Origin: Gemmatimonadales bacterium
Lineage (GTDB): Bacteria > Gemmatimonadota > Gemmatimonadetes > Gemmatimonadales > GWC2-71-9
Reading direction: 5' to 3'
Assembly: GCA_038321865.1 (NCBI GenBank)
Contig: JBBQFH010000002.1
Span: forward strand, 32,001-96,000
Length of the DNA: 64,000 nt
The position numbers and the translations under genes were made by a program. Positions 6,800 to 26,261 of this stretch are shown here, piece after piece (within the stretch, counting starts at the first letter, position 1; each line of letters starts with the position of its first letter). The notes beneath the pieces were generated by a model that had not been told where the DNA came from, searched no databases, and was given only the letters and a program-made list of their open reading frames with translations.

Positions 6800-6866
6800 T
6801 CCTTAACCTCCGCAACGGGATCGGCCAACGGAATCGTGAAGCGTCGCGCGACCCCGCGCGACCCAA

Positions 6867-6941
6867 TGGGCGAAGAGGGATTCGAACCCCCGACATCCTG
6901 CGTGTAAGGCAGGCGCTCTGAACCAGCTGAGCTATTCGCCC
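6867..6941 (-). tRNA. tRNA-Val(TAC)
   Basis: Reverse complement GGGCGAATAGCTCAGCTGGTTCAGAGCGCCTGCCTTACACGCAGGATGTCGGGGGTTCGAATCCCTCTTCGCCCA forms a cloverleaf. Confidence 0.96.
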
Positions 6942-7220: not shown

Positions 7221-8105
7221 CTACGGTACCCGACCCGGGTCAAGTTCCGGCGGCGCCTCATCTTCGCTCGGAATCACCCACCCCTCATCCAGCGCGGCAC
7301 GGCGGGGCCCGTCCGCCCGGCGGCGGATTCCGCCGAGCGCCAGCACCAGCGTCGCAATGACGCTCCAGACGCCGCCGGCGGCGATCCAGGTCGCCAGCCC
7401 ATACCGGCGCCGCACCGTTCCCATCCAGTCGCGAGCGAACTGTCCCACGTTGAGGCCCGTCGTCTGCCGCAGGGCGTCCTCAAACGGAACACCAGCTTCC
7501 AGGCGGGCCATCAGCGGGTCCAGCTTGCGGGTGGGATTGAGCTCGGCCAGCCGGGCCACCGCGGCCATGGAGAGCGCGTAGGCCGGACCGGCGGCGCCCT
7601 CATTCCCCCGCAGCTCGCCATCGAGGTCGTCCAGCTCGGGGACGCCGCCACGCGCGACCGACAAGTTGAGCGACAGTGCCGCGAGGCGATCCCATTCGCC
7701 GGCCGCCCACGCGGCGTAGCCTTCGTCGAACCAGCGCGGCACGCGCACCCGCACCGCGCCATGCAGTACAAGGTGAGCGAGCTCATGCCGCAGGGTTCGT
7801 TCGAGATCTCCCACATCGGCACGAAGCAGGATGGTGTGGGCCCCGGGCATCGCGATGCCGGCGCCCCACGTGGGCGCGCGTCCCCCGGTCATTTGCCGGT
7901 ATCGGGCCGCATCAGGGACCAGGATGAGCCGCATCGGCCCCGCCGAGCGGCGACCCAGACCGGGCCAGTATGCGGCCTGGTCCGCCGCTTCGGCCAGCGA
8001 CGCAGCCATGCCGAGCTGCGGGGGCCACGCGACCGCCACCACGTCGCCGACTCGCACCACGCGCGGAGGCGTCTGAGCAAACAGCAGGACGAATGCTACG
8101 AAAAC
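7221..8105 (-). CDS. Membrane-anchored zinc metallopeptidase (peptidase MA-like); start uncertain
   Basis: HELAH (HExxH) followed by PRWFDEGYA, a C-terminal TM, and a hydrophobic N-terminal stretch VFVAFVLLFAQ. No clean ATG/GTG at that point; the ORF is open to 8243. Confidence 0.7.
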   Translation of the reverse strand, partial: VFVAFVLLFAQTPPRVVRVGDVVAVAWPPQLGMAASLAEAADQAAYWPGLGRRSAGPMRLILVPDAARYRQMTGGRAPTWGAGIAMPGAHTILLRADVGDLERTLRHELAHLVLHGAVRVRVPRWFDEGYAAWAAGEWDRLAALSLNLSVARGGVPELDDLDGELRGNEGAAGPAYALSMAAVARLAELNPTRKLDPLMARLEAGVPFEDALRQTTGLNVGQFARDWMGTVRRRYGLATWIAAGGVWSVIATLVLALGGIRRRADGPRRAALDEGWVIPSEDEAPPELDPGRVP

Positions 8106-8974
8106 CGAGTACGCGGGATCTCTCCACCCGAAGCCGCCAGGGCGACGAGCTCGCCGCAGCGCCTGGCCCAGGGGTTGAACTTGTTGGCCTTCTGCCCGTC
8201 GGTCCACGTCTGAACGGCGCCAGCCCGATCGCCGGCGAGCCACTGCGCCCCACCCAGCTGCAGGTACGCCTCGATCAGGTTGGGGCCGAGCCGAAGCGTC
8301 TTCCGGAAAAAGCTCTGCGCATCGTCGTACATGTCGCGCTCGAGGTACACCAGCCCAAGATAATAATGTGCGTAGAGGGTGGCCTTGCGGTCGTTGTCGA
8401 GCCGGATGGCCTTGGAGAGGTGCTCGATCGCTTCGCCGAAGATTCGCTTCTTCAGGCAGATGTAGCCGACGTTGATTCGGGCCAGGGCGTTTGCGGGCTC
8501 ATTCATCAGCACCTTGGAAAAGGTGCCCAGCGCATCGTCGTACTCCTCATGCAGCATCTGCGCCCACCCGAGCAGCGACAGCGCTTCCACCGCGCCGGGC
8601 GACAGCTCCAGCGCCCGCGAGAGCACCTGTATCGCGCCGGCATGGTCGCCGAGAGAAATGAGGCTCCAGCCCTTCTCGATGAAGGTCGACGCTCCGATAT
8701 GATCATCGTGCACCACCGGCCGGGCATCCGTAAATGCGGGAGCCTGCGCAGTCGCGGCTGACGCCGAGACCTGCTTGTAGCGGTCCACCAGCAGACGGAT
8801 GTCTTCCTTGAGCTGCGTAACCTCCGCCAGCGCCGTATCGACTTTCTTGAAGAACGCGATGATCTCCCGCTTGGCCGCGTCGCGCCCCGATGCGTCGGCC
8901 GCGGCATCGAGCCGCGATGCGATCGTCGCGTATTCGCTCCTGAGCGGTGCCGTCAGCGACTCGTCTGCCGTCAT
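8096..8974 (-). CDS. Coiled-coil plus TPR protein
   Basis: Start MTADESL overlaps the cheW stop (ATGA); about 5 TPR repeats (KGWSLISLGD, LGWAQM, NVGYICLKK, YYLGLVY). Confidence 0.85.
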   Translation of the reverse strand: MTADESLTAPLRSEYATIASRLDAAADASGRDAAKREIIAFFKKVDTALAEVTQLKEDIRLLVDRYKQVSASAATAQAPAFTDARPVVHDDHIGASTFIEKGWSLISLGDHAGAIQVLSRALELSPGAVEALSLLGWAQMLHEEYDDALGTFSKVLMNEPANALARINVGYICLKKRIFGEAIEHLSKAIRLDNDRKATLYAHYYLGLVYLERDMYDDAQSFFRKTLRLGPNLIEAYLQLGGAQWLAGDRAGAVQTWTDGQKANKFNPWARRCGELVALAASGGEIPRTRFS

Positions 8975-9435
8975 GTCACTACTGCCGCTTCGAGGGCCTG
9001 CCGCTCCGTCGAGCTGAGGAGCCGGAGCGCGTTCAGCAGAACCACGGCCCGATCCCCTTCCGTGAGGATCCCGGCGATGTACGTCGCGGCCAGGCCGCGG
9101 ACCATGGGAGGCGGCGCGGTGATCGTGGTGCTGTCCACCCGCATCACCTCGCGGACCTGGTCGACCAGCATGCCGATGCGCTGCCCGTCGAGATTGAGGA
9201 CCATGAGGCGGGTTTCCTCCGTTACTCCGGCCTCCAGCTCGAGCCGCTTCCGGAGATCCACCACCGGAATCGCCGTTCCGGCGTAGCGAACGACGCCCTC
9301 GAGAAACGCCGGTGCCTTGGGCAGCGCCGACGGCTTCTCGTAGCGCAGGATGCGCTCCACCTGGGAAATATCGAGCGCGAACTCCTGCGAGCCCACGCGG
9401 AACGTGACCACCTGCATGTCGTCGCCAGTGTTCAT
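8971..9435 (-). CDS. cheW: Chemotaxis coupling protein CheW
   Basis: VVTFRVGSQEFALDISQVERI...FLEGVV...IPVVDLRKRL...IGMLVDQVREV. Confidence 0.93.
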   Translation of the reverse strand: MNTGDDMQVVTFRVGSQEFALDISQVERILRYEKPSALPKAPAFLEGVVRYAGTAIPVVDLRKRLELEAGVTEETRLMVLNLDGQRIGMLVDQVREVMRVDSTTITAPPPMVRGLAATYIAGILTEGDRAVVLLNALRLLSSTERQALEAAVVT

Positions 9436-9860
9436 GTGTCGATTCCCCTTTCCGCGAGCCGCGCACCAAGCGCAGTGAGATCAAGCAGGGGCACCAGTCC
9501 GTCCGCGCGCCGGACGACCGCGCGCGCCCAGGGAAGGGCGGAGCTCGGCGGGAGCGGCAGCGTCGCCTCCCGCACGACCACGTCCGCCTCCTCGACCTCG
9601 AGACAGAGCCGGATACCGCCAACCGAGATGACCACCGCGACCTCACTCACCCGGGGTGGGTACGCCTCGCCGGCCAGCAGGGCGCCGAGGTGAAGCACCG
9701 GCATCATTTCTCCCCGCACGTTCGCCACGCCGCGGAGCGCGGCCTCCGTGCTCGGAACCGGGTGCGCCGGGCCAGCGTCCGCGACCGCGACGACCTGCTC
9801 CACCGGAAGGCCGACCAGGCGACCTCCGGCGCGCACGAGCAGGAAGGACGCCTCGCTCAT
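9432..9860 (-). CDS. cheW: CheW-like protein
   Basis: [10 protein letters not shown]...PVP...[17 protein letters not shown] pattern; more divergent. Confidence 0.85.
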
Positions 9861-10939
9861 CGTGACGCCAGCGCGGCAAGCGCCACCTGTATCTGCGCCG
9901 CCATGTCGCGGATCGACGCCACACGGTCGGCTCCGCCGGCCTGGGCCGCAGCGTTGGGCATGCCGTATACGGTGGAGCTTTCACGATCCTGCGCCAGCCC
10001 GAATCCGCCGGCATCGTGGATTGCCTTCAGTCCGTCGGCCCCGTCACGCCCGAGACCGGTAAGCACCACCCCGATCGCACCGGGGCCGAACGCAACGGCT
10101 ACCGAGCGGAACAGGGGGTCGGCCGCGGGTCGGACCCCCCAGAGCGTGGGGCCACGATCGAGCACGAGGCACAGACCGCCGTCCACCGCCGGCATGACCT
10201 GCATGTGAAAATCACCTGGTGCCACGTACGCGGTGTCCGCCAGCAGCGGCGTCCGATCCTCGGCCTCCACCACCGCGAGGCGACTCTGCGAGGCCAGCCG
10301 CTCGGCGAGGCTTCGTGTGAACTTCGGCGGCATGTGCTGGACGATCACGACCGCCGCGCCGCTGCCGAGCTGGAGGCGCGGAACCACTTCGGCGAGTGCG
10401 CGCGGGCCGCCGGTGGATGCGGCGATCGCCACGCAGAACCGCGCGCGTCCCGGCAAGGCGAACAACCGCTCGGGCGGCGCGTCGCTCCGCCCCGGGCGGG
10501 CCAGCACCGGCAGTCGGTGAATGTTGGCTTCGCTCGCGCCTCGAAGCGCCGCGAGGACCCGCTCGCCGAGGCGATGCGAGGCCTCTGCGCCGCGATCATC
10601 CTCCTTGGCGACCAGGTCCACGGCACCAAGCTCCAGTGCCCGAATGGCCCCGGCGGTCCCGGGTCCCGCGTAGGCACTGACCACGACGATGGGGCGCGGC
10701 GACTCCGACATGATGTAGCCGATCGCGCCCAGCCCGTCGAGCTCAGGCATCTCCAGGTCCATCAGCACGAGGTCGGGCGCAAGGCGATGCACCTTCTGGA
10801 GCGCGTCCATCCCGTTCCGCGCCGTGCCGGCGAGCGCGAACTCCGCAGACCCGGTGACGGCATCGCCGAGGACGTGGCGGAAGAAAGGACTGTCGTCCAC
10901 CACGAGGACGGTGCGGCGCTCAGAGTGACTGGATCCCAT
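9857..10939 (-). CDS. cheB: Protein-glutamate methylesterase CheB (REC + esterase)
   Basis: REC domain (VVDDS, MDLEMP); catalytic ASTGGP, QHMP and [13 protein letters not shown]. Confidence 0.96.
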
Positions 10940-11402
10940 GCGCCACCGAAGACACCTCGAGCCGGCCGTCCGCGACGTACAGCCGCACCGTCCGGCCGTA
11001 GTCGCCGCCGACTGACTCGCCCACCAGCGGAATGCCGTTGACATTGAGGACGTGCCGCGTCGCTACGACGTTGCGTTCTCCCATCTGGATGGCGCCATGG
11101 GGAGCGAGGTTCGCGAACATGCTGGCGCCTCCAGCGATGCGGGCGACGGTCCGCTTCGGATTGGCCCCGCCTTCGACCATGAGCGCCAGGAGCCGGGGCA
11201 CGGCCAGCTGGGGAAACTTGGCCGGATTATCCGCGTTCCGGCTGAGCGCCGGCGAGGGCAGAAGTATGTGAGCCAGGCCGCCGATCCGCGCGCTCGCATC
11301 ATGCAACGCGATCGCGACACAGCTGCCCAGCCCGACCGTGACGAGGACGTCGCCGGCGGTCCCGACATTCAGATCAGCGACCCGTACGATGATGTCGGTC
11401 AC
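10920..11402 (-). CDS. cheD: Chemoreceptor glutamine deamidase CheD
   Basis: [34 protein letters not shown]. Confidence 0.95.
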
Positions 11403-12220
11403 GCCGCGCGCCGATAAATGCGTTCCCGGGCATCCACCAGGTGGAGCCGATCCCGGGCCGGGCCGAGCAGCGTCTCGACCTTGCCCAGGACGAGGACACC
11501 GCCCGGAGAGAGCCGTGAAGCGAACGTGAGGAAAAGCCGCTCCTGCATCGGGCGATCGAAGTAGATCACAACATTCCGGCAGAGAATGAGGTCATAGGCC
11601 GGGCGAAGCGGCGGGTCGGCCCCGAGATCCAGGCGGCTGACCGTGACGCGGCGGATTAGCTCAGGCACCACACGATATCCTTCGGTTTCCGGCACGAGAT
11701 AACGCGCGGCCAGGTCGGCCGGGAGCTCGGTAATGGCGTCCGGGCGGTAGCGCGCGCTGACGGCGCGCTCCAGACTGGCGCGATCCACGTCGGTGGCGTC
11801 AATCTCCAGCCGGTCCAGCCGCTCGGCGTGCCCCGCGGCACGATCGGCCTCCGCGACGAGCATCGCCACCGTGTAGGCCTCTTCACCCGAAGCGCAGCCG
11901 GCGCTCCACGCTGCGATACGACCCTCGCGTGCGGCGACCAGCTCAGGCACGATCGAGCCGCGGAGCAGGTCCCAGGTTTCGCGGTTGCGGTAGAATCGAG
12001 TCACGTTGATGGTGAGCGCGTCACGCAGCCGCTCGCACTCCGGCGGCACGCGTTGGAGTACCGCGAGGTAATCCGTGTATGTGTGTACTCCGCAGGCGCG
12101 CATGCGCACGGCGATCCGCCGACGCAAACATTTGTCCTTGTAGACGTCGGGCGTGAGCCCGGCCGCGTCGGTGATCCGCCGCGAGAGGGCGGCGGTCAGC
12201 GCGTCGTCGGCGGCCGTCAC
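11399..12220 (-). CDS. cheR: Chemotaxis methyltransferase CheR
   Basis: TINVTRFYRN, WSAGCASGEEAY, ATDVD, DLILCRNVVIYFD. Confidence 0.96.
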   Translation of the reverse strand: MTAADDALTAALSRRITDAAGLTPDVYKDKCLRRRIAVRMRACGVHTYTDYLAVLQRVPPECERLRDALTINVTRFYRNRETWDLLRGSIVPELVAAREGRIAAWSAGCASGEEAYTVAMLVAEADRAAGHAERLDRLEIDATDVDRASLERAVSARYRPDAITELPADLAARYLVPETEGYRVVPELIRRVTVSRLDLGADPPLRPAYDLILCRNVVIYFDRPMQERLFLTFASRLSPGGVLVLGKVETLLGPARDRLHLVDARERIYRRAA

Positions 12221-13836
12221 GATTGCCGATCCAGCATGTCGAGATTGGCCCGCGCGAGCTGATGCCCTGGGTTCAGCTCGGTCGCGCGCTGCCAGCTCGT
12301 CCGGGCCCGGGCGGGGTCCCGCCGCTTGAACGCGATGTTGCCCATCTTGAAATACAGGTCATCGCCGAGATCCGGCGCGAGACGCGCCGCGCGCTCGTAG
12401 GCCTCGAACGCCTCATCGTAGCGCCCGCCCCGGTACAGCAGGTCGGCGAGATTCTTCGAGGTCTGCGGCAGCGATGCGTCTTCGGCCAGCGCGGAGCGCA
12501 GCATGATCTCCGCCGCGGCCACGTCACCGCCGAGCTCCAGCAGCACGCCGAGATTGTTCCGCAACACGGGCTCGGCCACGTGGGCCTCGACGCCGGCGCG
12601 CGCCAGGGCAACGGCCGAGTCCGCATCATCGCAACCCGCGGCGGCGAGCGTGGCGGCCCAGAACCACAGCGGCGGGGGCGTCCGGTCGCCATGCAGTTCG
12701 CGGGCGCGGGTCAACCGTGCCTGGGCGGTCTGAAAGTCACCGCGCTTGAGCGCCACCACGCTCCAGCCGGTCTGGATCCGGGCATCGTCGCGCGCGCGCC
12801 CGGCGGCTTCGCCGTACGCGGCTTCGGCCTCGTCAAGCCGCCCAAGCTGCTCGAGCGCGAACGCCAGGTTATGCAGCGCTGCCGGACGCGGGCCGCCGCG
12901 CTCGACCGCCTGCCGCAATGCATCCGCCGCCGCCTGCCACCGCGCCTGGCGAAGCGCGATGAGCCCCAGAAAGAACGGTGCCGTTCCCTCGGACGGCCGC
13001 AGATCGGCCACGCGCCGGAACTCCCGCAGCGCCTCGTCCAGCATGCCGGTCTTGTAGAACGCGATCCCGAGATTTCGATGCTCCTCGATCCTGCTGTCAT
13101 TCATCTTGGGCACCGCGGCCGCCGCCGATGAGCCGGCACGGTGGGCGAACCCTGCCGCAATCAGCCCGTAGAGCGCCTTGCCGACCTCGAACTCCACCAG
13201 CCCGGAATCTTCGACGACCTGCTGCACGTCGCGGGTTCCGTCCAGCAGCGGAAGCAGCCGCTGCTGGACGGCCGAGAGACTGACGCCGGCGGATTCCATG
13301 TGCGTCCGGTCAAGCGAAAAAATCAGGTCAAAGGAAGGAATCTTTTTGGCGATCAGGCTCCACTCGTCCACCCGGCGCGCGCCTTCGAGGAGCAGCGACT
13401 CGGCGTTGATCTGGACCAGGAAGTCTTCCCGTTCCGGCCGAACGCCCGCCTCGAAATTGAACGTCCCGCTCGACCAGGTGAACAGGTAGTACACGGCCTC
13501 CTCGATCTGGAGTCGCATGTACTCCTCGAGTGCCGCCCGTGGCAGCGCTCCCGACTCCACGAGCAGTTCTCCGAGCTTCCGCTCGCGGTCGACGCTCTGC
13601 GCCTGGACCGCCTCCTCGAGCTGTGCCGCGCTGATGCGGCCGCTCTTGACCAGGATATCTCCCAGCCGGTCACGCCGATTCACGATGGAGGCGTAGGAAA
13701 TACGCCCGGCATCGAAGTAGACGTAGCCGAAGTTCTGCCGGTCAGCCACGGCGAGGCAGCCGGTTCGGCGCCCCAATGTCAGCAGCTGAATGACATCCGG
13801 AAGGCTGGCCTCCTTGAGACTGCCCTTGATCGCCAT
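12217..13836 (-). CDS. DUF4388 + tandem MshEN-like motif + TPR protein
   Basis: GSLKEASLPDVIQLL...TGCL and LFTWSSGTFNF (DUF4388); RLGDILVKSG...KLGELLVESG; C-terminal TPRs. Start overlaps the upstream stop (TGATG). Confidence 0.85.
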   Translation of the reverse strand: MAIKGSLKEASLPDVIQLLTLGRRTGCLAVADRQNFGYVYFDAGRISYASIVNRRDRLGDILVKSGRISAAQLEEAVQAQSVDRERKLGELLVESGALPRAALEEYMRLQIEEAVYYLFTWSSGTFNFEAGVRPEREDFLVQINAESLLLEGARRVDEWSLIAKKIPSFDLIFSLDRTHMESAGVSLSAVQQRLLPLLDGTRDVQQVVEDSGLVEFEVGKALYGLIAAGFAHRAGSSAAAAVPKMNDSRIEEHRNLGIAFYKTGMLDEALREFRRVADLRPSEGTAPFFLGLIALRQARWQAAADALRQAVERGGPRPAALHNLAFALEQLGRLDEAEAAYGEAAGRARDDARIQTGWSVVALKRGDFQTAQARLTRARELHGDRTPPPLWFWAATLAAAGCDDADSAVALARAGVEAHVAEPVLRNNLGVLLELGGDVAAAEIMLRSALAEDASLPQTSKNLADLLYRGGRYDEAFEAYERAARLAPDLGDDLYFKMGNIAFKRRDPARARTSWQRATELNPGHQLARANLDMLDRQS

Positions 13837-15827
13837 CAGCGCCACTCCTCGATCAGGCGGGCGGCGACGTCGGGCCAGTCCCAGACCATCTTTTCCCGGC
13901 TGCGAATGCCGCCGGCCGTCGGTGCGAGCACGCCGCTGGACCGGGAGCCCGTCCGCCTGGGCGCGCGGATGACGGGGCCTTCGAGTACTTCACGTGCGAG
14001 CGCGGCTGTCGGGTGGGCCTGCTGCGCTTCGGCCGCGTTCAGCACCCGCTGGACCAGGCCGAGCGCGCTGCGCATCGAGTCGGCCGGCCGGGCGGCGATG
14101 TACGCGGCGAGCTCGGGATCCACACCATCGAGCCGCGCCCCCAGCAGCCGCTCGATGGCTCGCTGGCGCAGCTCCCGATCGGGTGCGGGGAGGTCCACCA
14201 CCAGACCACCCTCGAGCCTGGTCAGCAGCCGCGGCTCGACCCCGGTCAACTCCGCCAGCGGGAGCGCGCACGAGAAGACCATCTGCCTGCCCTGCTCCAG
14301 CAGGTGGTTGAACAGGAGGAACAGCTCGTCCTGGCTCCGGTCCTTGCCGGCGATGAGGTGGACATCATCAAGGAGGAGCGCATCCACCTTCCGGTACCGG
14401 GCGCGCCAGAGCGGAACGGCATTGCGATCGATCGCGGAGATCAGCTCCTCGATGAACTCGCTGGTGCCGAGGCAAGCCACGGTGCCTGCCGGTGCCAGCG
14501 CATTCCCGAGGCCATGCAGCAGATGTGTCTTGCCATTACCGCTCGCACCCACGATGACGAGCGGATTGTACTTCGCACCAGGCTCAGCGGCGACGGCCGT
14601 GGCGGCGCGTACGGCCATCCGGTTGGATCCGCTCTCCAGGACGTCGCCAAGCCTCCAGTGCGGCGACGGTCCCGGGGGGGCCGCCGCACCGGCCTGCGCC
14701 CGCTCCAGCAGCCCCGCCGCCGCCGCCACATCATCCGGATCCTGCAGCAGCGCCGACCCAGCGAGCTCGGGCGCGATGCTCGCGAGCTCGTCGGCGATCG
14801 AGCGAAGGCGGTTGACATCGGCCTCGAACGCTCTCAATGCTGCGTCGGGATCCGCGAGTGCGTCGTCGTTGAGCAGCGCGGCCAGCCGCGCGACGCGATA
14901 GCCCTCCCCTTCCCATCGCACCATGGCCTCGCCCACCCGCGAGCGCCACGACTCGACCTGGTGGGTGACCGTCGCGGACACCTCGAGCAGGAAATCGGCG
15001 AACTCGTCCCGCTCCTCCGGCGCCTCCGCTGGCGCGGGCTCCCTCTGCTCCGGCGACGGGTGCGGTGCTTCCGGCAGGGCGTTGGCCAGGCGAACGGCAT
15101 CGGGCGCGTCACGACCGCCCACGAGGAGGCGCGCCTGGCCGGCGTCGAGGAGATCAGGGCTGATCGCCTGGTAGGCGATGAGGCGGTTCAGCGCTCCGAT
15201 GAGCTCCCGGACGTTGTCGATGTCCACCGAGGCGACGGCTTCGAGCACGCCGGCGCCGAAGGCCGCACCGCGTGCTTCCGCCCGGCGCCGGAGAATGGCG
15301 ACCCGCGTCTCATAGTCGGGTGCCGAAATGTCGATCACGAGGCCGCCCGCAAAACGGCGAATCAGCCGTTCGTCGAGCGCCTCGATTTCCGACGGTGGAC
15401 GATCGCTGGTGAGCACGATCTGACGGCCCCCGCGCTGCAGCGTATCCACCAGTCGGAGCAGTTCCGCCTGCATCTCGCGTCGCTGACTCAGAAATTGCAC
15501 ATCGTCGAGCAGCAACAGCTGGGTGTCCGCGAATCGGTGGCGATACGCATCGCCCTGGCCGCCGGCCACGGCGGCATTGACCGCCTCGACCAGCTCGTCG
15601 AGCGTCAGGTATTCCACCGCCAGGCGGGGATCGATCGCGCGAGCGGCGTGACCGATCGCCATGAGCAGATGGGTCTTCCCCAGCCCCGGCCCTGCGTAGA
15701 TGAACAGCGGGTTGTAGCCGCTGCCCGGGGCCTCGGCCACGGCATGTGCCGCCGTCGCCGCCAGGCGATTCGAGGCGCCCACGACGAGTGTCTCGAAGCG
15801 GAATTGCTCCGGCAGCGCTCTGGTCAC
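13836..15827 (-). CDS. DnaA/Hda-family protein with two tandem DnaA-type AAA+ domains and no DNA-binding domain IV
   Basis: Two copies of SNR...YNPL...GKTHLL...LLLDDV...RLxxR(F/L)xGGLV; GTG start overlaps the mglA stop. Confidence 0.88.
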
Positions 15828-16426: not shown

Positions 16427-16429
16427 GGG

Positions 16430-16891: not shown

Positions 16892-17238
16892 CAGCCGAGC
16901 ACCCGGGCCGCTTCGAGCAGCTCCAGACGGGCCAGGCCCACGTTCGCCCCGCGGTCGGCGACCGCGACCACGAGCATGTCGTTGGGCGCAGGCACGGCCA
17001 GCAGCACTCCCTCCTCCCCGCGCAGATGCACCACACCGGGAACACCAAGGCCTGCGCTCGTGGTAGCGCGGCGGAGCCGGGCGCACAGGCTGGCGGCGAG
17101 CGCGGCAACCGCACGCCCATCCACATCCTCCATGGACACGTCGGCCACCACCAGGCCGTCGGAGGCGGATACCAGCATGACCCCGCGAATCCCCCGGACC
17201 GCGCTCACCCGGCGAAGCGCCTGCTCGTGCTGGCTCAT
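16891..17238 (-). CDS. Roadblock/LC7 domain protein
   Basis: VRGIRGVMLVSASDGLVVA...AVAALAASL...ANVGLARLEL, a typical Roadblock pattern. Confidence 0.88.
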   Translation of the reverse strand: MSQHEQALRRVSAVRGIRGVMLVSASDGLVVADVSMEDVDGRAVAALAASLCARLRRATTSAGLGVPGVVHLRGEEGVLLAVPAPNDMLVVAVADRGANVGLARLELLEAARVLG

Positions 17239-18104
17239 GAGAGTCCCTCGAGCCATCGGCGAGCGGCCTGTGCCGCGCGGTCTGCCAGCAAAGCCAGCCG
17301 GCCGGCCGGCACCCCGATGTCGCGCACAGTGAGCAGCACCGTCTCCGGAGTGGGCGCCACCAGGTGCATGTTGCCGTCAGGACACTCCACCGACACGCTC
17401 TGCCAGGCGCCGAGGCCGAGCAGTCGTCCGGCGCGGGCGGCCTCGCGGGACACACCGGCAAGATGGGCCGCGACAGTGTCGGCGACATCGGTGCCATCGC
17501 CATCCCGCAGGCCGCCGCCGAGCCGCAGGCCATGCTGATCGAGCAGCAGGAGCCCATCGCGCGCGCCTTCGAGTCCGGCAAAGAGCTCGGCATCATCGGG
17601 CAGCGACGAATCGACGTCCAGCGAGAAGGGCATCGGGGGCGATGCAGTCGCCACGCTGTCCTCCGCGCGCGGCTGCGTCTGCGGCGGGACCGGTTCCGGA
17701 GCGGTCGAGGCGGCGCGCATGCGCAGGATCGCGGCGGCGAGGCCGGCATCAGCCGCCGCACCCGCGGCGGCGGCTTCGAGGTGCCGAAGCGCACGGGGCG
17801 CGTCGCCGGCCCGATAGTAGAGAAAGCCGAGGCCCTTGTGCGCACTGCGATCAGCCGGGTCGAGGCGCAGCGCCGTCATCCAGCCGTCGAACGCCGCATC
17901 GCCATGGCCGGCATCGGCCAGGATCCGCGCGTGCAGCGAATGCGCCTCCGCCATGTCCGGGTATCGTGCCAGCCCGTTCGCCGCGACCGTCAATGCCGGC
18001 CCCAGCTGGCCGCGTTGCCGCAACAACTCGGCCAGGTCGAGAAAGGCGAGACTCGACCCGTCGGCGGCGAGCTGTGCGGTCAGCGTCCGGACGTCGTCAC
18101 TCAT
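17235..18104 (-). CDS. TPR-Roadblock fusion protein
   Basis: N-terminal TPRs, a Pro-rich linker, and a C-terminal Roadblock-like domain (GLLLLDQHGL...VAAHLAGVS...VPAGRL). Confidence 0.8.
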   Translation of the reverse strand: MSDDVRTLTAQLAADGSSLAFLDLAELLRQRGQLGPALTVAANGLARYPDMAEAHSLHARILADAGHGDAAFDGWMTALRLDPADRSAHKGLGFLYYRAGDAPRALRHLEAAAAGAAADAGLAAAILRMRAASTAPEPVPPQTQPRAEDSVATASPPMPFSLDVDSSLPDDAELFAGLEGARDGLLLLDQHGLRLGGGLRDGDGTDVADTVAAHLAGVSREAARAGRLLGLGAWQSVSVECPDGNMHLVAPTPETVLLTVRDIGVPAGRLALLADRAAQAARRWLEGLS

Positions 18105-19245
18105 GCGCCGTCCGGGTTCCTTCCACAAGCGTCATCGCCGCGGCACGGAGGCGGCTCACCGACCCACCCAATGCATCCTCGGCCGGTGGTCTCGCATCCA
18201 GGCGGCTCCACGCATCCCAGGACTCCACGGCCTGCTCCAGCTGGCCGGCCCTCGCCTGGCACACGCCGAGCATCCTTCGCGCGGGAGCCAGCATCGGATC
18301 GATCCGCAGGGACTCCTGAAATGCATCCCCCGCTTCACCGTGCCGCCCGGAGGCGAGCAGGGCGCGTCCAAGCGTGACATGAGCCTCCGCATGGTCGGGC
18401 CGCGCCGCGACGACGTCGAGTGCGGCCACGCGAGCCGCCTCCGGATCTCCGGCGGCGAGCGCCGTCCGGGCGCGGAGCAGCAGCTCGTTCAGCTCGGCCC
18501 CGATCGGCGCGGGCGCCAGGGCGCGGCGTGGGTCATCCAGGACGATGACCCCGGCGGCGGCGAGGCCGAAGAGCGTCCGCGCGATTTCGAAATCCGAGCG
18601 CCCGACCGCAGCCGCGACGCCGTGTACATCGCGGGTGCCGTCGACGGCGCCAAGCACTTGCCATTCCGCCGGCAACAGATCAAGCCGTGTGGTGCCGCCG
18701 GCATCCGGCGGCACCAGCTCCGGCACCATCCCCAGATGCGGAATCCGGCTCTCGATGCGCGCCCACTCGTCGATCCGCCGCGCAGCCTCCATCAGCAGCG
18801 CCTCGGTGGGGATGCGCACCTGGCCGGGCCCGGAAGGCGCCGGCGGCGTTTCCGAGAAGGAGAAGTAGCCTTCGGACCAGCTCATGAGCTCGAAGATTAC
18901 CTCCTCGACCTGCGCCCGTGCCTGACGTTCCAGCTCCCGGCGGCCGACCGCACCCATGGCGAGCAGGATGTCGCCGAGGCGCCGGCCGTCGCCCCCCTCC
19001 TGCATCGCCAGGGCCCTCGCAAAATCCTCCTCGCTCAGCTTGCCGCTTCGCAACAACAGCGTCCCCAGCGGATGCGGATTGGTGCGGATCTCGGCCGCGA
19101 CCACCCCGCCCTGCTCGAACTGCACGGTTCCGGCGTTCTGCCTGAGGTCCGACGTGATCCGCAGCGTGCCGGTCTTCCGCGCCAGATCGAGCAGCTGGAA
19201 GACATCGTGAATCGACAGCTCCTTGAGCGGGCCTTCGATCGGCAT
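18097..19245 (-). CDS. DUF4388 + tandem MshEN-like motif + TPR protein (paralog of 12217-13836)
   Basis: GPLKELSIHDVFQLL...KTGTL, LMSWSEGYFSF, LLMEAARRIDEW; RLGDILLAMG; C-terminal TPRs. Confidence 0.85.
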   Translation of the reverse strand: MPIEGPLKELSIHDVFQLLDLARKTGTLRITSDLRQNAGTVQFEQGGVVAAEIRTNPHPLGTLLLRSGKLSEEDFARALAMQEGGDGRRLGDILLAMGAVGRRELERQARAQVEEVIFELMSWSEGYFSFSETPPAPSGPGQVRIPTEALLMEAARRIDEWARIESRIPHLGMVPELVPPDAGGTTRLDLLPAEWQVLGAVDGTRDVHGVAAAVGRSDFEIARTLFGLAAAGVIVLDDPRRALAPAPIGAELNELLLRARTALAAGDPEAARVAALDVVAARPDHAEAHVTLGRALLASGRHGEAGDAFQESLRIDPMLAPARRMLGVCQARAGQLEQAVESWDAWSRLDARPPAEDALGGSVSRLRAAAMTLVEGTRTAHE

Positions 19246-19247
19246 GG

Positions 19248-21917
19248 CTAGCCCGCCGTCGTGGCGAAGATGTGCTGCAGGTCGCGCGCGGATCGCGCGC
19301 GGGCGCGGGCCTGCGCGGCGAGATCTCCGGCGGGTTCGAGCTGCACCACTCGGTCCCAGGCCGTGACCGCGTCAGCGAAATGGCGTTCCCGTGCAAGGGC
19401 GACGCCCCGATGGAAGAGCGCGGCAGCGTCATTCGGGTCGAACCGGAGTACCCGGTCGAACGCCTCGAGTGCGCAGCTCGTCCGGCCGTCCTCGAGCAGG
19501 ATCCGCCCGAGGAGCGTCAGGGCCGCCAATTCGTAGGGGTCCACCGAAAGTGTCCGCACCAGGACGTCGATGCCCGCGCTCGCGGATTCGGTCCGGGCGA
19601 GGAGGTCCGCCAGCGCCATGGCGGCATCGGTGAAGGTCGGGAGCAGCTGGAGCGCCCGCTCGTACGCTGCGCGCGCGGCCGCCCAGTTGGCCCGTGCCTC
19701 TTCCAGGCCGCCGAGCTCGTACCAGACCTGCACCAGCGAACCGTCGAGTTGCAGCGCCACCTGGCAGGCCTCGAGCGCAGCGTCGATGTCGCCGAGTTGG
19801 CCGGCGATCACCGCCTGGAGCTGGTACAGATCGGGCCGGCCGGGCGCCGCGCGCTGGGCCGCGCGCACTGCGGCCATGGCGGCGGCCGCGTCGCCGGTCG
19901 CGTGGAGCACGCGCGCATGGGCCAGCAGCACGTCCGCATCACCGGGTGCGCGCCGAGCAAGCGCTCCCGCGACTTCGACCGCCTCGCTCGCACGGCCAAG
20001 CGCCACCAGACTGCGTATCTCGCCCAAGGCGGGTCCCAGCTCGCCCGGCGCAGCCGCGCGCGCTTCGGCAAAGCGCTCGAGGGCTTCGCCATGCAGGCCC
20101 CGCCGGGCGAAGATGGCGCCCCAGAGCGCTGCCGCATGTGCCGGTGTCACGCCCCGGCCACGCAAGCGCTCAAGCTCGGCGGCGGCAAGCTCCAGCAGCC
20201 CCTTGGCCACGTAGTCGCGCGCCAGCGCCAGCGGGTCGGGTTCGTGCGGTTCGACCACGTCCGCCCGTGCCGGCGCCAGCTCGTCGAACAGCCGATCGAG
20301 CGCCGTCGGATCGAAGGCGAACTCGCCGGCGAGCGTCGAACCGCTGAGCTCCGCCTTCAGTGCCGGTGCCACGGCGATGGTCGGATCCTCGAACTGAAGG
20401 TCGATTGCCAGCACGTATTTCTGGGGCACGTAGTACGGCTCCAGCTCGAGCGCCTGTTTAGTGGCCCTCAGCGCCGCATCGAAGTCGCCCAGCTGGCTCA
20501 ACGTAAAGCTCAGGTTGTAGTGCGCCGCCGCCAGCGTGGGGTCCGCTTCCACCGCGCGGCCAAAGGCGTTCCTTGCATCGGAAAACCGCTTGAGCTCCAT
20601 CAGCACGAGCCCCACTCCATTCCACGCGATGGCGCTGCCGGGAACCTCCGCGAGTACACGCCGATACCCCTCCAGCGCCTGCTGGATCTCCTGCCGCTGG
20701 AAATGCAGCAGCGCCAGGTTGAGGCGGGCGGTGAGCGGCGGCCGCGTGCCCTGCGTTGCACGGCGGAAGGCCTCAAGGGCGGCGGCGTCCGCCGGATTCT
20801 GGGCCCGGAGGACGCCCAGATTGTTCCAGGCCAGCGCGTAGGCCGGGTCGAGATCGACCGAGCGCGCGTACGACGCCGCGGCCTGGTCCAGCCGGCCGAC
20901 CTGATGCAGGCAGACGCCGCGTTCGTTCCAGAGCTTCGGCGAATCACCAAACTGCTGCACCAGCGTCTCGTAGAGCTCGAGCGCCGCGGCGAGGTCATGC
21001 CGCAGCAGCTGGACCTCGGCCATCGCCTGCAAGGCGTGTCGCCGATCGTCACCGGCATCCAGCGCCAGCCGGTACTCACGCAACGCCTCGGCGTAGTAGC
21101 CCTTCTGCCGGAACGCCAGGCCGAGCGCGAAGTGCGCCAGGGCGCCGTGTCTCACGACCTTCGGCCCCTCCGCGGCGGGCTGCCGCGCCGGCTCCGGCTG
21201 ACCGAGAGCGAGGTTGGCCTGGGCGCGGGCGAGCAGCGGGTTCAGCTCGATGGCGCGCCTGGCGGAGCTTCGGGCCGCTTCCTGGTCACCGATGTCGCCG
21301 TACACGAAGGCAAGCAGGTAATGCGCGTCGGCGTATTCCGGATTGCGGGCAATTGCGGCCTGAAGCGCCGTGCGCGCAGGCTCGTTGAGGCCGCGATTGT
21401 AGAGCGCTTCGCCATAGGCGAAGAGGGCGACGGGGCTCTCGGGATCGCGTTGGCACGCCTGACGAAACCATTCGACCGCCGCGTCGATGTTGCCGCGCGC
21501 CTTCTCCGCGAGCCCGATCTGCACCAGCGCCGCCGCATCGCCCGGCTCCGCCGCCAGCAGCGCCTCGAACTCGTGCACGGCCTCGTCGTGGTGCCCCAGC
21601 GCGGCGTAGGCACGGCCCAGCTCCCAGCGCGCGTCGCGGTCGCGCGGAGAGCTCCGGAGCCGCTCCCGCAGCTCTGCCACGCGGCGGTCGTAGTGCCCGT
21701 TCTCCCGGTAGGCGAGCTCCAGGTTGGTCTGGGCCACCTGCATCTTCGGATCGAGCTCGAGCGCGCGCGCGAAACCAGCCACGGCCTCTGCGATGAGGCC
21801 CTTCTGGTAGTAGAGCACGCCGAGATTGTTGTGCGCGCCGGCGTCGGACGGATCGATCCGGGTGGCGAACGACCGGAGCGCGGCGAGATCGCGCTCGGAA
21901 AGCACGGGGGCCGGCAT
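19248..21917 (-). CDS. Large multi-TPR scaffold protein (889 aa)
   Basis: Many TPR units (AHNNLGVLYY, AWNNLGV, AHYNL, VWYELG); start re-picked at MPAPVLS. Confidence 0.88.
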   Translation of the reverse strand: MPAPVLSERDLAALRSFATRIDPSDAGAHNNLGVLYYQKGLIAEAVAGFARALELDPKMQVAQTNLELAYRENGHYDRRVAELRERLRSSPRDRDARWELGRAYAALGHHDEAVHEFEALLAAEPGDAAALVQIGLAEKARGNIDAAVEWFRQACQRDPESPVALFAYGEALYNRGLNEPARTALQAAIARNPEYADAHYLLAFVYGDIGDQEAARSSARRAIELNPLLARAQANLALGQPEPARQPAAEGPKVVRHGALAHFALGLAFRQKGYYAEALREYRLALDAGDDRRHALQAMAEVQLLRHDLAAALELYETLVQQFGDSPKLWNERGVCLHQVGRLDQAAASYARSVDLDPAYALAWNNLGVLRAQNPADAAALEAFRRATQGTRPPLTARLNLALLHFQRQEIQQALEGYRRVLAEVPGSAIAWNGVGLVLMELKRFSDARNAFGRAVEADPTLAAAHYNLSFTLSQLGDFDAALRATKQALELEPYYVPQKYVLAIDLQFEDPTIAVAPALKAELSGSTLAGEFAFDPTALDRLFDELAPARADVVEPHEPDPLALARDYVAKGLLELAAAELERLRGRGVTPAHAAALWGAIFARRGLHGEALERFAEARAAAPGELGPALGEIRSLVALGRASEAVEVAGALARRAPGDADVLLAHARVLHATGDAAAAMAAVRAAQRAAPGRPDLYQLQAVIAGQLGDIDAALEACQVALQLDGSLVQVWYELGGLEEARANWAAARAAYERALQLLPTFTDAAMALADLLARTESASAGIDVLVRTLSVDPYELAALTLLGRILLEDGRTSCALEAFDRVLRFDPNDAAALFHRGVALARERHFADAVTAWDRVVQLEPAGDLAAQARARARSARDLQHIFATTAG

Positions 21918-21921
21918 GGCC

Positions 21922-22542
21922 TTACGGCAGGCGGATCGCGTCGAAAATGGCGCGCAGCGATGGCATGTCTGGCAGCAGCAGGAAATGTCCTTCGAGCTGT
22001 TCACTGGCGCCGCCGACGTGGAAGGCCGTCTCCACGCAGAAGACGAAGTCGCGCTCGTGGCCGAAGTTCAGGTACGTCGTGGTGAGAATCGCCGCCGACT
22101 GGTCAATGACGAGACTCGGCACCGACGGAACCAGCATCATTCCCATGAAGTCGCTGAGCGCGTTCATGTACGCGCTGACCAGAATGTTGCCGACCTCCTT
22201 CAGGCCCGACTGTTCCATTTCGCCGAAGGCGGTCGTCGTGCCGCGGGCGCGCCCCAGCAGCATGTCACAGACTGCGAGCGCTGACTCTTCGGGAAACAGC
22301 ACGAGCGTGCGCCCGGTCAGGTCGCCCATCATCTGCATCAGCACCGCGGCGATCACCGCATCCGGCGGGCCCAGGAGATCGGTGACCTCCTCGAGCGGCC
22401 GGACATTGATCTCGGGCACGCTGATCATGATCTTCTGATTGGTCATCTGCGACAGCGCGGTCGCCGCGTGGCCCGCCCCGATATTGGCGACCTCGCGCAG
22501 CGCGTCCAGCTGCAGCTCCTTCAATCCGCGGGCGTCGTCCAT
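21922..22542 (-). CDS. cheC: CheY-P phosphatase CheC
   Basis: Two ExxN active-site motifs: DALREVANIGAGHAATALS and SGLKEVGNIL. Confidence 0.94.
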   Translation of the reverse strand: MDDARGLKELQLDALREVANIGAGHAATALSQMTNQKIMISVPEINVRPLEEVTDLLGPPDAVIAAVLMQMMGDLTGRTLVLFPEESALAVCDMLLGRARGTTTAFGEMEQSGLKEVGNILVSAYMNALSDFMGMMLVPSVPSLVIDQSAAILTTTYLNFGHERDFVFCVETAFHVGGASEQLEGHFLLLPDMPSLRAIFDAIRLP

Positions 22543-22555
22543 TCGCTCCTCGCTC

Positions 22556-24400
22556 CTACAACAGTGCGGCCGCGTCCAGAATGAGCGCGGGCGACCCGTC
22601 CGCCAGAATCGTCGCCCCGCCGAAGAATGACGGCATGCCAAGCGGCGCGTCGAACGGTTCCACCACGATGTCCTGCTGGCCAAGCAGCGCGTCGACCACC
22701 AGCGCCGCCCGGCGATCACCAACCTCGAGGATCACGGTGGGACGCCGAACTGGGGGCGGTCCCCCGCGCAGCGCGACCAGGTCACGAAGATGCACAGTCG
22801 GGATGGCCTGATCGCGCACCACCAGCGCCTCCCGGTCGCGTACCGCGGTGACGGCACGGCCGTCGAACTCCACCGTCTCCGCCACGTAGGCGAGCGGAAT
22901 GGCATAGCGTTCGGCGCCCACGGACGTCAGCAGCGCCCGGACAATGGCGAGCGTAAGCGGGACACGCACCACAAACGTCGTACCCTGCCCCGCCACCGAC
23001 TCGATCGCCAGCGTGCCGCCCAGCGTCCGTACCCGGGTCGCCACGACATCCACGCCGACGCCGCGGCCGGACACGCCGCTCACCTGTGTGGCGGTGCTGA
23101 ACCCCGGCCGGGCGAGGGTCTTGAGCAGGCTGTCGTCTGTCAGCGCCTCGACCGCCGCGTCGAGAATCCCTTCCTGCCGGGCCTTCGCCAGAATGGCGGC
23201 CCGATCGATGCCTCGGCCGTCATCGGAGACCCGGATGGCCACGCTATTCCGTTCCCGCGCCGCCGACAGCAGGATCCGACCCTGCGGCGGCTTGCCGGCG
23301 GCCACCCTCGTCTCCGGCGTTTCCAGCCCGTGGTCCATCGCATTCCGGATGAGGTGCAGGAGCGGATCGCCGATTTCGTCGAGAATCGCACGGTCGAGCT
23401 CGATCCCTTCGCCCTCGATTTCGAACCGCACCTGCTTCCCCAGGTCGCGGGACAGATCCCGCACCAGTCGCGGAAACCGGTCGAACACTTCTCCGACCGG
23501 CGTCATCCGGGCCTGAATGACCTCCACCTGCAGATCGGTGACCAGCCGGGCGATCCGCTCCGTGACGGTCTCCAGCTCCGGCGCCGCGCCAGTCCGCACC
23601 AGATCGACGAGGCGGTTCCGCGCCACGACCAGCTCACCGACCTGCTTCATCATGGTGTCGAGCCGGCGCAGGTCGACGCGGATCTGCCGGCCGCGCACAG
23701 TCGGCTCGGTACGCTCCGGCGCGATCTCGTCGAAGGTGATGCCGTCCACGTCACCGGCGGAGCGGATCGCGACCCTGACGTCCTCGTCCGATGCGGCGGA
23801 CTCGAGCCGGAAACTGAACTTCCCGTCGAAGTCTTCCCGTTCGAACGCTGCGGCCGCCGGCCGGAGCGCAGTCACCGTGCCCAGCTGCTCGGCCCGACGG
23901 AGCGCCAGCATCGCCCGGCCCCCTCGCATCTGCGCGCCGGCGCGGATCGCCACGCTCACCGCCCGCCCCGACGGCTGAATGAGGTGCACCGCAAATTCGG
24001 CTGTCTGCGCACTGACGAGGCCGCCGGCCGCGGCACGGTCGAGCGCGGTGATGAGGTCACCGTCCGCCGTATTCGCCGGTTGACCCGCGGCGGCTCGCTC
24101 GACGCCCCCTGCGATCTCGTCGACGGCGCCGAACAGCAGCTGGAACAGCTCCGGGGCGGCCGCGACCCGACCGGTCCGCAACGCGTCGAGCAGGTTCTCC
24201 GCGCTGTGGGCGACGCGGGCCACGCCCTCGTACCCCATGGTCGCCGCCATGCCCTTGATCGTGTGGATGGCCCGGAAGAGGCCGTCCACCGGCTCCGGAG
24301 CCGCCGGGTCACGCTCCCACTCGAGCAGACACTGATTGCACGCGGCGAGGTGCTCCCGGCTCTCAGCCAGGAAGAGCGCGGCGTACTTGGCAAGATCCAT
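22556..24400 (-). CDS. cheA: Chemotaxis histidine kinase CheA (Hpt-P2-dimerisation-HATPase-CheW)
   Basis: FRAIHTIKG, HLIRNAMDHG, DDGRGI, PGFSTA, SGRGVG, VPLTLAI. Confidence 0.97.
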   Translation of the reverse strand: MDLAKYAALFLAESREHLAACNQCLLEWERDPAAPEPVDGLFRAIHTIKGMAATMGYEGVARVAHSAENLLDALRTGRVAAAPELFQLLFGAVDEIAGGVERAAAGQPANTADGDLITALDRAAAGGLVSAQTAEFAVHLIQPSGRAVSVAIRAGAQMRGGRAMLALRRAEQLGTVTALRPAAAAFEREDFDGKFSFRLESAASDEDVRVAIRSAGDVDGITFDEIAPERTEPTVRGRQIRVDLRRLDTMMKQVGELVVARNRLVDLVRTGAAPELETVTERIARLVTDLQVEVIQARMTPVGEVFDRFPRLVRDLSRDLGKQVRFEIEGEGIELDRAILDEIGDPLLHLIRNAMDHGLETPETRVAAGKPPQGRILLSAARERNSVAIRVSDDGRGIDRAAILAKARQEGILDAAVEALTDDSLLKTLARPGFSTATQVSGVSGRGVGVDVVATRVRTLGGTLAIESVAGQGTTFVVRVPLTLAIVRALLTSVGAERYAIPLAYVAETVEFDGRAVTAVRDREALVVRDQAIPTVHLRDLVALRGGPPPVRRPTVILEVGDRRAALVVDALLGQQDIVVEPFDAPLGMPSFFGGATILADGSPALILDAAALL

Positions 24401-24404
24401 GGAG

Positions 24405-24767
24405 CTAGCCGAGGACGCGCTGAACGGCCTCGAGCACGCGGGATGGCTGGAACGGCTTGACGACGAAGTCCTTCGCACCGGCCTGAATGGCCTCGACGAC
24501 CAGGGCCTGCTGGCCCATGGCACTACACATCAGCACCTTTGCGTCGGGATCGCCTCGGCAGATTTCCCGCACCGCATCGATGCCGCCCATGTCGGGCATC
24601 ACGATATCCATGGTGTCGAGGTCGGGCTTGAGCTGGCGGTTCGTCTCGACCGCCTGCACGCCGGACTCGGCCTCGCCGACGATCTCGAATCCGGCCTGGC
24701 TCAGGATGTCGCTGATCATCGTGCGCATGAAGATGGCATCATCGCAGACGAGAACCGTATGACTCAC
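24405..24767 (-). CDS. cheY: Single-domain response regulator CheY (Bacillus/Thermotoga-like)
   Basis: GTG start with GGAGG RBS; DDAIFMR, MDIVMP, SAMGQQ, AKDFVVKPF. Confidence 0.94.
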   Translation of the reverse strand: MSHTVLVCDDAIFMRTMISDILSQAGFEIVGEAESGVQAVETNRQLKPDLDTMDIVMPDMGGIDAVREICRGDPDAKVLMCSAMGQQALVVEAIQAGAKDFVVKPFQPSRVLEAVQRVLG

Positions 24768-24822
24768 TAGCCCACCTCCGTGCGATTTCGTAGACGCGGG
24801 CCGGACGGCGCCGCGAGTGGAG

Positions 24823-25260
24823 TCAGCTGCCGAGCATCGGCGCGAGGAGCGCCTCGATGTCGAGAATGACGAAGTGTTCGTCGCCCCGGCGTCCCACCGC
24901 CAGGACGATCCGGGGATCCACGCCCGGAAGCTGATCCCGCTCCGCCACTGCCGTCGTCGGCAGTTCGACAAAATCGCTCACTTCGCCGACCAGCAGCCCG
25001 TACGTCCGTTGCCCGACGTCCATGACGATGACGGCACCCTCGTCCGCGTCGCGTCGCGTCTGACCCAGCAGCCGGTGCCCATCCACCACGGTCAGCAGTG
25101 CTCCCCGCACATTGATCAGCCCCTCCACGGCCCCGGCGACACCGGGAATGCGGGTAGCCGGGAGCGGCGGCAGGATCTCTCGCACAATCCCTGCCGGGGC
25201 GGCGCAGACCAGGTCGCCGACGCGAAACACGACGGCATGGAGGGTCGGGGAATCAGGCAT
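24823..25260 (-). CDS. cheW: CheW-like protein
   Basis: VVFRVG...IVREI...TRIPG...EGLINVRG...YGLLVGEV; overlaps the end of rluD. Confidence 0.9.
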   Translation of the reverse strand: MPDSPTLHAVVFRVGDLVCAAPAGIVREILPPLPATRIPGVAGAVEGLINVRGALLTVVDGHRLLGQTRRDADEGAVIVMDVGQRTYGLLVGEVSDFVELPTTAVAERDQLPGVDPRIVLAVGRRGDEHFVILDIEALLAPMLGS

Positions 25261-26248: not shown

Positions 26249-26261
26249 CTCGCCACCGCGG

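Follow-up and report, generated by a model that had tools for sequence, protein, structure and literature searches.

A conserved Gemmatimonadales locus combining Dif-like chemosensory genes, an MglA/PATAN cassette and a DnaA-derived tandem ATPase

A 64,000-nucleotide stretch of DNA (hereafter the window; positions C2:32001–96000 of genome G000) from a sediment bacterium of the little-studied order Gemmatimonadales carries, between window positions 7221 and 25260 and entirely on the minus strand, a block of 19 co-directional genes in which a chemosensory set surrounds a cassette encoding a Ras-like MglA-type GTPase, Roadblock proteins, tetratricopeptide repeat (TPR) proteins, two proteins with a PATAN domain and a tandem AAA+ protein derived from DnaA, here named DnaA2. 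The locus is real, conserved and apparently uncharacterised, and it assembles known kinds of parts around one new component, DnaA2. What it controls is likely to be type IV pili or surface behaviour, not DNA replication. DnaA2, in turn, is likely to partner the second PATAN protein (PATAN-b) and to be neither an initiator nor an Hda. The reading favoured here, which we hold with about even confidence, is that CheY, the GTPase (MglA2) and cyclic di-GMP (c-di-GMP) converge on PATAN proteins regulating the type IV pilus motor, with DnaA2 as partner or scaffold of PATAN-b.

Conservation of the locus across relatives

The initial annotation of the window described 19 co-directional, mostly overlapping genes, running from cheW1, cheY, cheA and cheC through eight inner genes to cheR, cheD, cheB, cheW2, cheW3, a TPR gene and a peptidase gene, and open reading frame (ORF), Pfam and NCBIfam scans together with measurement of the junctions bore this out. 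Neighbouring genes overlap at 11 of the 17 junctions between cheW1 and the last TPR gene, and the largest gap is 55 nt. At the upstream end rluA, which directly precedes the locus in 76 loci, overlaps cheW1 by 8 nt, so that the gene block extends beyond 25260. In that comparison, rows showing cheY without rluA were disregarded, since they arose where the CheB receiver of truncated loci was matched by cheY. A scan for promoters and terminators was uninformative, returning no promoter-like sites and two terminator-like sites where 7.1 are expected by chance.

The 19-gene arrangement is not due to chance. Loci were compared using the best 80 of 128 fetched with the ATPase as query, a set biased toward ATPase carriers, and gene order was violated in none of the 80; all eight inner genes were present in 54 of the 55 loci spanning cheC to cheR, and all 19 in 40 of the 46 that could be followed from end to end. 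Conservation of the Mgl/DnaA module beside the che genes in relatives, on which the earlier proposal of a joint locus depended, therefore holds. The flanks are conserved on both sides as well, with rluA at one end and tRNA-Val, a TPR gene, tRNA-Asp and mraW at the other, and the closest relatives of the window ATPase carry Gemmatimonadales or Gemmatimonadota titles.

A survey of 150 further genomes, sampled evenly across the phylum, delimits this distribution. PATAN-b is matched in 103 of 107 genomes of the same order (73/74 in the same family, 28/31 and 2/2 in other families), in 5 of 28 in the rest of the class and in 0 of 15 outside the class, and an AAA+-bearing DnaA2 was read from the match listing in 73 of 74 same-family genomes and in 22 of 31 of another family. 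Kin are not independent, and no statistics are drawn from these counts. Three genomes outside the class (G006, G009, G015) have two DnaA-like matches each and no match to PATAN-b or mglA. Extra PATAN-b paralogues lie away from the locus in G089, G065, G086 and G040 (L157, L158, L159 and L160, respectively), two of them in open frames of about 970 residues.

A series of natural deletions, read from 40 + 10 genomic regions of relatives, indicates which parts can be spared. The che arm has been lost and the MglA/PATAN/ATPase core kept in G089, G105 and G145, where rluA lies 131–167 nt before the long TPR gene; che relics remain in G066, and che loss is partial in G035 and G040. No methyl-accepting chemotaxis protein (MCP) match was obtained in G035, G040, G105, G108 or G145, and G089 keeps two. 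G112 retains only DnaA2, PATAN-b and the peptidase.

DnaA2 and its candidate partner PATAN-b

DnaA2 (13836..15827; assigned by Pfam, alignment and structure model) comprises a first AAA+ lobe (D1, residues 4–226), a linker, a peptide motif A (272–296), a helical mid domain (290–388) that had no Pfam match over cut-off, a second lobe (D2, 388–620) and a second peptide motif B (641–663). An AlphaFold model based on 64 sequences (mean predicted local distance difference test score, pLDDT, of 89; predicted template modelling score, pTM, of 0.53) contains two lobes of the DnaA domain III type and a disordered linker, with motif A forming the start of a long helix and motif B weakly ordered. The best structural match of the lobes is domain III of Bacillus subtilis DnaA (8bv3; Z 31.4, root-mean-square deviation 1.7 Å over 235 residues), and Hda matches with Z 20.9. 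DnaA2 thus shares with DnaA and Hda the domain III fold and the nucleotide-binding motifs, but differs in having tandem lobes, in lacking domains I and IV and the clamp motif, and in possessing a mid domain and two peptide motifs that persist after loss of the ATPase.

Conservation was assessed in an alignment of 94 homologues, 11 of 105 nominally full sequences having been dropped as fragments, with DnaA residue numbers transferred through a gap-free alignment to 8btg and residue roles taken from the available portion of PMC10721633. D1 keeps Walker A and B, sensor I, the arginine finger and sensor II (94–100% of 95 sequences); D2 keeps Walker A and B, the arginine finger and sensor II (88–98%) and has lost sensor I. 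DnaA2 probably still oligomerises with ATP. The single-stranded DNA (ssDNA) face of D1 is altered (I190 to H in 78%, N187 to E in 91%, Q224 to E in 96%), whereas D2 keeps the equivalents of the B. subtilis residues I190 (82%), I193 (81%), R202 (95%), K222 (80%) and E228 (98%), and R206 too (80–98%).

DnaA2 was nevertheless rejected as an initiator, as domains I and IV are missing (no DnaA_N or Bac_DnaA_C match in Pfam, the model being fully accounted for by other parts) and a canonical dnaA lies elsewhere in the genome. Hda is characterised by an N-terminal beta-clamp-binding motif, and this pattern occurs at the N-terminus of 0 of 94 DnaA2 homologues; together with a TIGR03420 score of 155 bits, below the cut-off of 194.8, this led to rejection of DnaA2 as an Hda. 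The suggestion in the initial annotation that the locus might be linked to replication is accordingly unsupported, the more so since the AAA+ domains proved to be the dispensable part of the DnaA2 gene.

It is this dispensability that singles out PATAN-b (12217..13836), a PATAN/DUF4388-MshEN-(winged-helix-like)-TPR protein whose start, in 70 of 82 loci, shares 1 nt with the DnaA2 stop. The second AAA+ lobe has been lost in G045, G080 and G102, and both lobes in G032, G043, G048, G068, G070 and G110; all six lobe-less loci retain, directly before PATAN-b, a short ORF (~60–100 residues) bearing motif A and motif B. Because this motif-only ORF persists next to PATAN-b in six relatives, DnaA2 is likely a partner of PATAN-b. 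In every examined locus spanning the junction PATAN-b adjoins either DnaA2 or the short remnant, and it is the one gene that accompanies motifs A and B in every context examined. Motif B has a pLDDT of about 55 in the single-chain model of DnaA2, a value that fits expectation because a segment folding on a partner would look so. The MshEN insert of PATAN-b has also disappeared in five of the six lobe-less loci.

Both PATAN-a (18097..19245) and PATAN-b contain the DUF4388 domain (PATAN; PF14332) with an MshEN insert and TPRs, and c-di-GMP-type sensors had been anticipated in the locus. This was correct for PATAN-b, which scores 44.6 bits against NF053729 (cut-off 38) and carries the full tandem motif (RLGD...L...Q, 90–94% per key position in 96 homologues), but less so for PATAN-a, which scores 36.1 bits, below the same cut-off, and has an incomplete motif, the first arginine being replaced by proline in 77% of 90 sequences. 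The published c-di-GMP motif of MshEN is a tandem RLGxxL...LxxxLxxQ (available portion of PMC5013675), and a strict 24-residue version of the MshEN pattern matched only 13 of 97 PATAN-b sequences.

A profile search of 1.84 billion representative proteins placed DnaA2 among several related designs. The arrangement D1, motif A, mid domain, D2 and motif B recurs at ~30% identity in P0173, P0188 and P0177. P0129 and P0131, of ~1,900 residues, join MshEN to a DnaA-type AAA+ lobe, a long coiled coil and a further such lobe, and a third group (P0154, P0164, P0166, P0183, P0196) has a weakly PATAN-like N-terminus in which Pfam finds no PATAN, six to eight mid-domain repeats and one DnaA-type lobe. Members of the latter family, with P0204–P0212, span 1,100–1,650 residues, have a weakly PATAN/DUF2226-like N-terminus, a DnaA-type AAA+ lobe without domain IV and C-terminal zinc ribbons; in the Atlas the N-terminus has mostly archaeal neighbours, a lead only. 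A metagenome scan around P0183 gave AAA-domain matches only, 77 of 80 with a domain-IV-like tail. In a tree of the lobes, drawn without the misplaced long branch D1_L107, the D1, D2 and fusion lobes each fall on one side of a well-supported branch, and no origin or donor of the lobes is claimed because the tree has no root. The pairing of DnaA-type AAA+ with MshEN or the mid domain thus appears to recur, which does not imply homology throughout. Other relatives depart from the design: P0128 has a receiver domain at its end where DnaA2 has motif B, and P0126, P0187 and P0191 are tandem DnaA-AAA+ proteins without motifs A and B or the mid domain, P0126 having by eye a domain-IV-like tail at its end. 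An apparent DnaA2-DUF4388 fusion, P0251, was set aside, as junction residues of both proteins are missing and it has no contig record.

The chemosensory arm and the MglA switch

The chemosensory genes are cheW1 (24823..25260; PF01584), cheY (24405..24767; PF00072, a single receiver domain), cheA (22556..24400; Hpt-P2-dimer-HATPase-CheW without a fused receiver, with the His, N-box and G-box motifs present), cheC (21922..22542; a phosphatase with two [DS]xxxExxN motifs) and, beyond the cassette, cheR (11399..12220; Pfam and motifs), cheD (10920..11402; Pfam, NCBIfam and motifs), cheB (9857..10939; receiver and methylesterase), cheW2 (9432..9860; Pfam), the gene most often missing among close relatives, and cheW3 (8971..9435; Pfam). 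The catalytic motifs of CheA, CheC, CheD, CheB, CheR, MglA and the peptidase are all present in the window proteins. This cheA is the only one in the genome. The locus contains no receptor gene, and other contigs carry three orphan MCP genes; in all three the C-terminal arm measures 154–156 residues (22 heptads), which, counted on that arm only, assigns them to the 44-heptad (44H) type. One of these receptors, L002 (G000:C1:149137-149682), has a multi-pass membrane N-terminus and, by eye, a GAF-like region, and another, L003, has almost no periplasmic domain and resembles described Dif-like receptors.

The initial annotation had drawn a parallel with the Frz system of Myxococcus, which turns out to be the wrong class. 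In Frz (ACF) systems CheA is fused to a receiver domain, and since CheA of the window has none, a Frz-type identity was rejected; on their domain content, including CheC, CheD and the 44-heptad orphan receptors, the che genes are Dif-like. They share with the Dif system of Myxococcus xanthus and with the Dif-like clusters of Geobacter a CheA without receiver, CheW, CheY and CheC, with the Geobacter clusters CheD and CheR as well, and with both the 44-heptad receptors and a non-flagellar setting. The window cluster differs from them in having no receptor gene and three CheW proteins, and in being split around the eight-gene MglA/PATAN/AAA+ cassette. Dif-like clusters belong to class F1. 44H receptors also accompany class F9 (PMC9321776).

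CheY of the window carries two substitutions, Y43N and V51D, at otherwise near-invariant positions, shared by 0 of 82 homologues. The assembly departs from a contig of run X1 by three single-base differences within cheY (window positions 24616, 24641 and 24643). Because this contig, the only one of run X1 (which may be the source sample) to bridge these positions, carries the consensus residues, the two odd residues are probably assembly errors.

Within the cassette, mglA2 (15824..16426) encodes a group-1-like MglA paralogue (E 1.5e-71 to MglA chain 5ymx_A) in which G1, R53, T54, Q82 and G4 are intact and conserved in 102 homologues. MglB2 (16430..16891; E 1.5e-10 to MglB chain 6h5b_B, NF052242 below cut-off), a predicted GTPase-activating protein, is encoded within four genes of mglA2 and is lost in some relatives. 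Next to it lie a Roadblock/LC7 protein (16891..17238; Pfam), a TPR-Roadblock protein (17235..18104; Pfam), PATAN-a and an 889-residue TPR protein (19248..21917; Pfam), by analogy only a candidate SgmX-like effector of MglA. A canonical dnaX-ybaB-recR-mglB-mglA-pgsA-cinA locus lies on contig C45 (7986-12161) and a canonical dnaA-dnaN on contig C6; the MglA and DnaA-like genes of the window are therefore extra copies. The MglA of contig C45 has an insertion of ~30 residues after the G4 motif, and a further Roadblock gene stands outside both mgl loci (C20:6055-6318). In two loci of genus g11 (L128 and L163, in G103 and G033, respectively) MglA2 shows only 39–42% identity, the long TPR gene is cut short and PATAN-a has diverged, while DnaA2 and PATAN-b are normal, which suggests that the parts of the MglA sub-module changed in concert.

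The pair resembles MglA/MglB of M. xanthus and Thermus in its group-1-like MglA, intact catalytic residues and coupled MglB, and the M. xanthus module with SgmX, MglC and RomY in its additional Roadblock and TPR proteins. It differs in being a second copy, in having its partners co-encoded and in standing beside a Dif-like rather than a Frz relay. Neighbourhoods joining MglA and PATAN were reportedly noticed by Makarova in 2006. Wuichet and Sogaard-Andersen (2014, PMC4316618) report MglB-MglB-MglA-PATAN strings in Chloroflexi, Chlorobi and Aquificae, and table S2 of that work lists Gemmatimonas aurantiaca GAU_1409 as PATAN>MglA>-PATAN>, a pattern that fits the core of the window locus and from which identity with that locus may be inferred; in the available portion of that paper, flanking che genes, a DnaA-type ATPase and a function go unmentioned. 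The portion of PMC9862903 at hand mentions one cheA, in a flagellar context only. A description of the whole system was not found in the open-access literature, in keeping with the initial annotation; what has been published is MglA-PATAN neighbourhoods.

The remaining genes close the locus on its downstream side. A conserved 292-residue TPR protein with an N-terminal helical extension (8096..8974; Pfam) is kept in che-less relatives, and an MA-clan HExxH peptidase with a C-terminal hydrophobic stretch (7221..8100; start codon uncertain, frame open to 8243) is possibly a hitch-hiker. Further downstream (window 114–6941) lie murE, ftsI, ftsL, rsmH/mraW, tRNA-Asp, a TPR gene and tRNA-Val, and upstream (25253–30550) rluA, lspA, a DksA/TraR-like gene and ileS, named by sequence inspection except for rluA, the tRNAs and the TPR gene.

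Output of the locus and alternative readings

In the favoured reading a Dif-like relay, served by the 44-heptad orphan receptors and complete in its parts and catalytic motifs, with no flagellar switch found, would deliver its signal through phosphorylated CheY acting in trans on a PATAN-MshEN-TPR protein, so that the two together would behave like a split PatA-type (PATAN-REC) regulator. Concomitantly, c-di-GMP would bind the MshEN insert of PATAN-b, and MglA2 in its GTP-bound form, under the influence of MglB2 and both additional Roadblock proteins, would bring TPR proteins to one pole in the way that MglA recruits SgmX, a 14-TPR protein that stimulates pili in Myxococcus (available portion of PMC11580455). 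DnaA2 would use motifs A and B to dock on PATAN-b, and head-to-tail oligomerisation of its AAA+ lobes with ATP may cluster or gate the complex. By analogy with Synechocystis, in which PATAN (DUF4388) binds PilB1 and PilC according to the accessible part of bioRxiv 10.1101/2021.06.11.447907, the PATAN domains would then contact PilB or PilC and bias pilus extension, the che arm being an optional input to the MglA/PATAN/ATPase core. As far as the portion at hand describes them, the cyanobacterial PatA-type regulators (PixG, PilG, PixE, LsiR) use PATAN as an output to PilB and PilC; they too have a PATAN domain with an MshEN/alpha-clip insert and chemosensory genes alongside, but the window PATAN domains are fused to TPRs and not to a receiver, CheY being a separate protein.

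The genome carries pilB-pilT-pilC, with pilB and pilC on contig C4, and pilM, and no match to flagellin or FliM/N was obtained in its assembly, which is 89.85% complete. Flagellin exceeds the cut-off in 15 of 74 same-family genomes and 13 of 31 of another family, and in only 29 of the 108 other genomes with PATAN-b, many of these 29 having a further cheA near the flagellin gene. CheY is 74–88% identical in distant relatives; with flagellin unmatched in most carriers, such conservation calls for another target. Of the outputs entertained in the initial annotation, polarity or surface motility thus remains the best supported, and coupling to replication finds no support.

Several observations weigh against the favoured reading. 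Pili are compatible with it but not diagnostic, because 145 of the 151 genomes sampled have a pilM match, among them genomes without the locus, and some flagellated relatives possess only this cheA (e.g., G021, G027, G046, G091, G103, G150). The arms are separable, since G068 and G070 have lost the MglA cassette while keeping che, PATAN-b, the short ORF and the small TPR gene, and mglB and the Roadblock genes are lost with mglA kept in G063, G099, G132, G090 and largely G136. G110 has lost the AAA+ domains and kept MshEN. Rate covariation over 48 loci and 18 genes gave no significant pair among 153, with means of -0.10 between che and the MglA cassette and 0.09 between DnaA2 and PATAN-b. The ssDNA-binding face retained by D2 is superfluous to the model. 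The PATAN likeness of the fusion N-termini is weak (pairwise hhalign E 0.003, probability 9.5%; Atlas 0.76–0.79), and in the tree the AAA+ lobes of the fusions group by themselves, away from D1 and D2. The initial claim of a single system is therefore too strong, since the che arm and the MglA cassette have each been lost independently and between-arm rate covariation is nil; what stands is a conserved, tightly coupled hybrid locus.

An unlikely alternative is that the locus works as Dif does in Myxococcus and senses surface or pilus contact. Through c-di-GMP it would then control exopolysaccharide, adhesion or aggregation; the PATAN/MglA core would be its output, and the pili would lie upstream, not downstream. 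The MshEN motif and the seven GGDEF matches of the genome would suit such a circuit, but neither a polysaccharide gene nor a cyclase gene occurs among the 19, described Dif-like clusters hold an MCP gene of their own, and the MglA, PATAN and TPR precedents, if the analogy is apt, point to the pilus motor.

Independent loss of the arms also raises the prospect, improbable in our judgement, that an old insertion brought together two functionally separate modules, an ordinary set of chemotaxis genes and an MglA-PATAN cassette, which nothing but shared transcription holds in one place. The slightly negative between-module covariation, and the occurrence of MglB-MglB-MglA-PATAN cassettes in other phyla in table S2 of PMC4316618, as far as available, would agree with this. 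Yet one and the same division of the che genes by the cassette is seen throughout the order and in several further families of the class, CheY is well conserved in carriers that mostly have no flagellin match, and loss of the cassette in G068 and G070 leaves PATAN-b, the short ORF and the small TPR gene with che.

A shade more improbable still is that DnaA2 connects the polarity switch to replication or division, with D2 binding ssDNA or DnaA itself, or DnaA2 joining DnaA oligomers as an Hda-like or poisoning subunit, so that the state of replication or DNA uptake would pass via PATAN-b to the MglA switch and the chemosensory relay. The DnaA-like fold of both lobes, the conserved D2 face and both arginine fingers are in line with this notion, as are the absence of a separate Hda from the genome in a tblastn search and the mraW/ftsI division cluster ~2.4 kb downstream, where mraW is conserved. 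However, beyond the missing domains, the missing clamp motif and the altered face of D1, D2 has no sensor I and is itself absent from three genomes, both lobes are absent from six loci, several of the kept D2 residues also line the protomer interface, and the division cluster is set off from the locus by tRNA genes. Were it true, an initiator AAA+ filament module would have been recycled as a signalling polymer, and in the greater part of a bacterial class chromosome state would be hard-wired to cell polarity; the MshEN- and PATAN-like DnaA fusions of other lineages would then be parallel cases. Control of Agl-Glt-type gliding or flagellar swimming is very improbable: although MglA controls gliding in Myxococcus and some flagellin-bearing relatives have only this cheA, gliding was rejected, as the genome gave no match to GltJ and only short sub-cut-off matches to GltG, and swimming is opposed by the missing flagellin and FliM/N matches.

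Gemmatimonadota are abundant in soils and sediments, and most of the order's sampled members, the majority of them without a flagellin match, have no chemosensory system besides this locus, which is thus the principal way into the question of how Gemmatimonadales sense, move or attach. One block unites parts that are scattered in Myxococcus, namely the relay, the GTPase, the Roadblock proteins, the TPR effectors and PATAN, and cross-talk between a chemosensory relay and MglA thereby becomes testable with a small parts list. Its DnaA-derived ATPase would represent a non-replicative use of the initiator fold.

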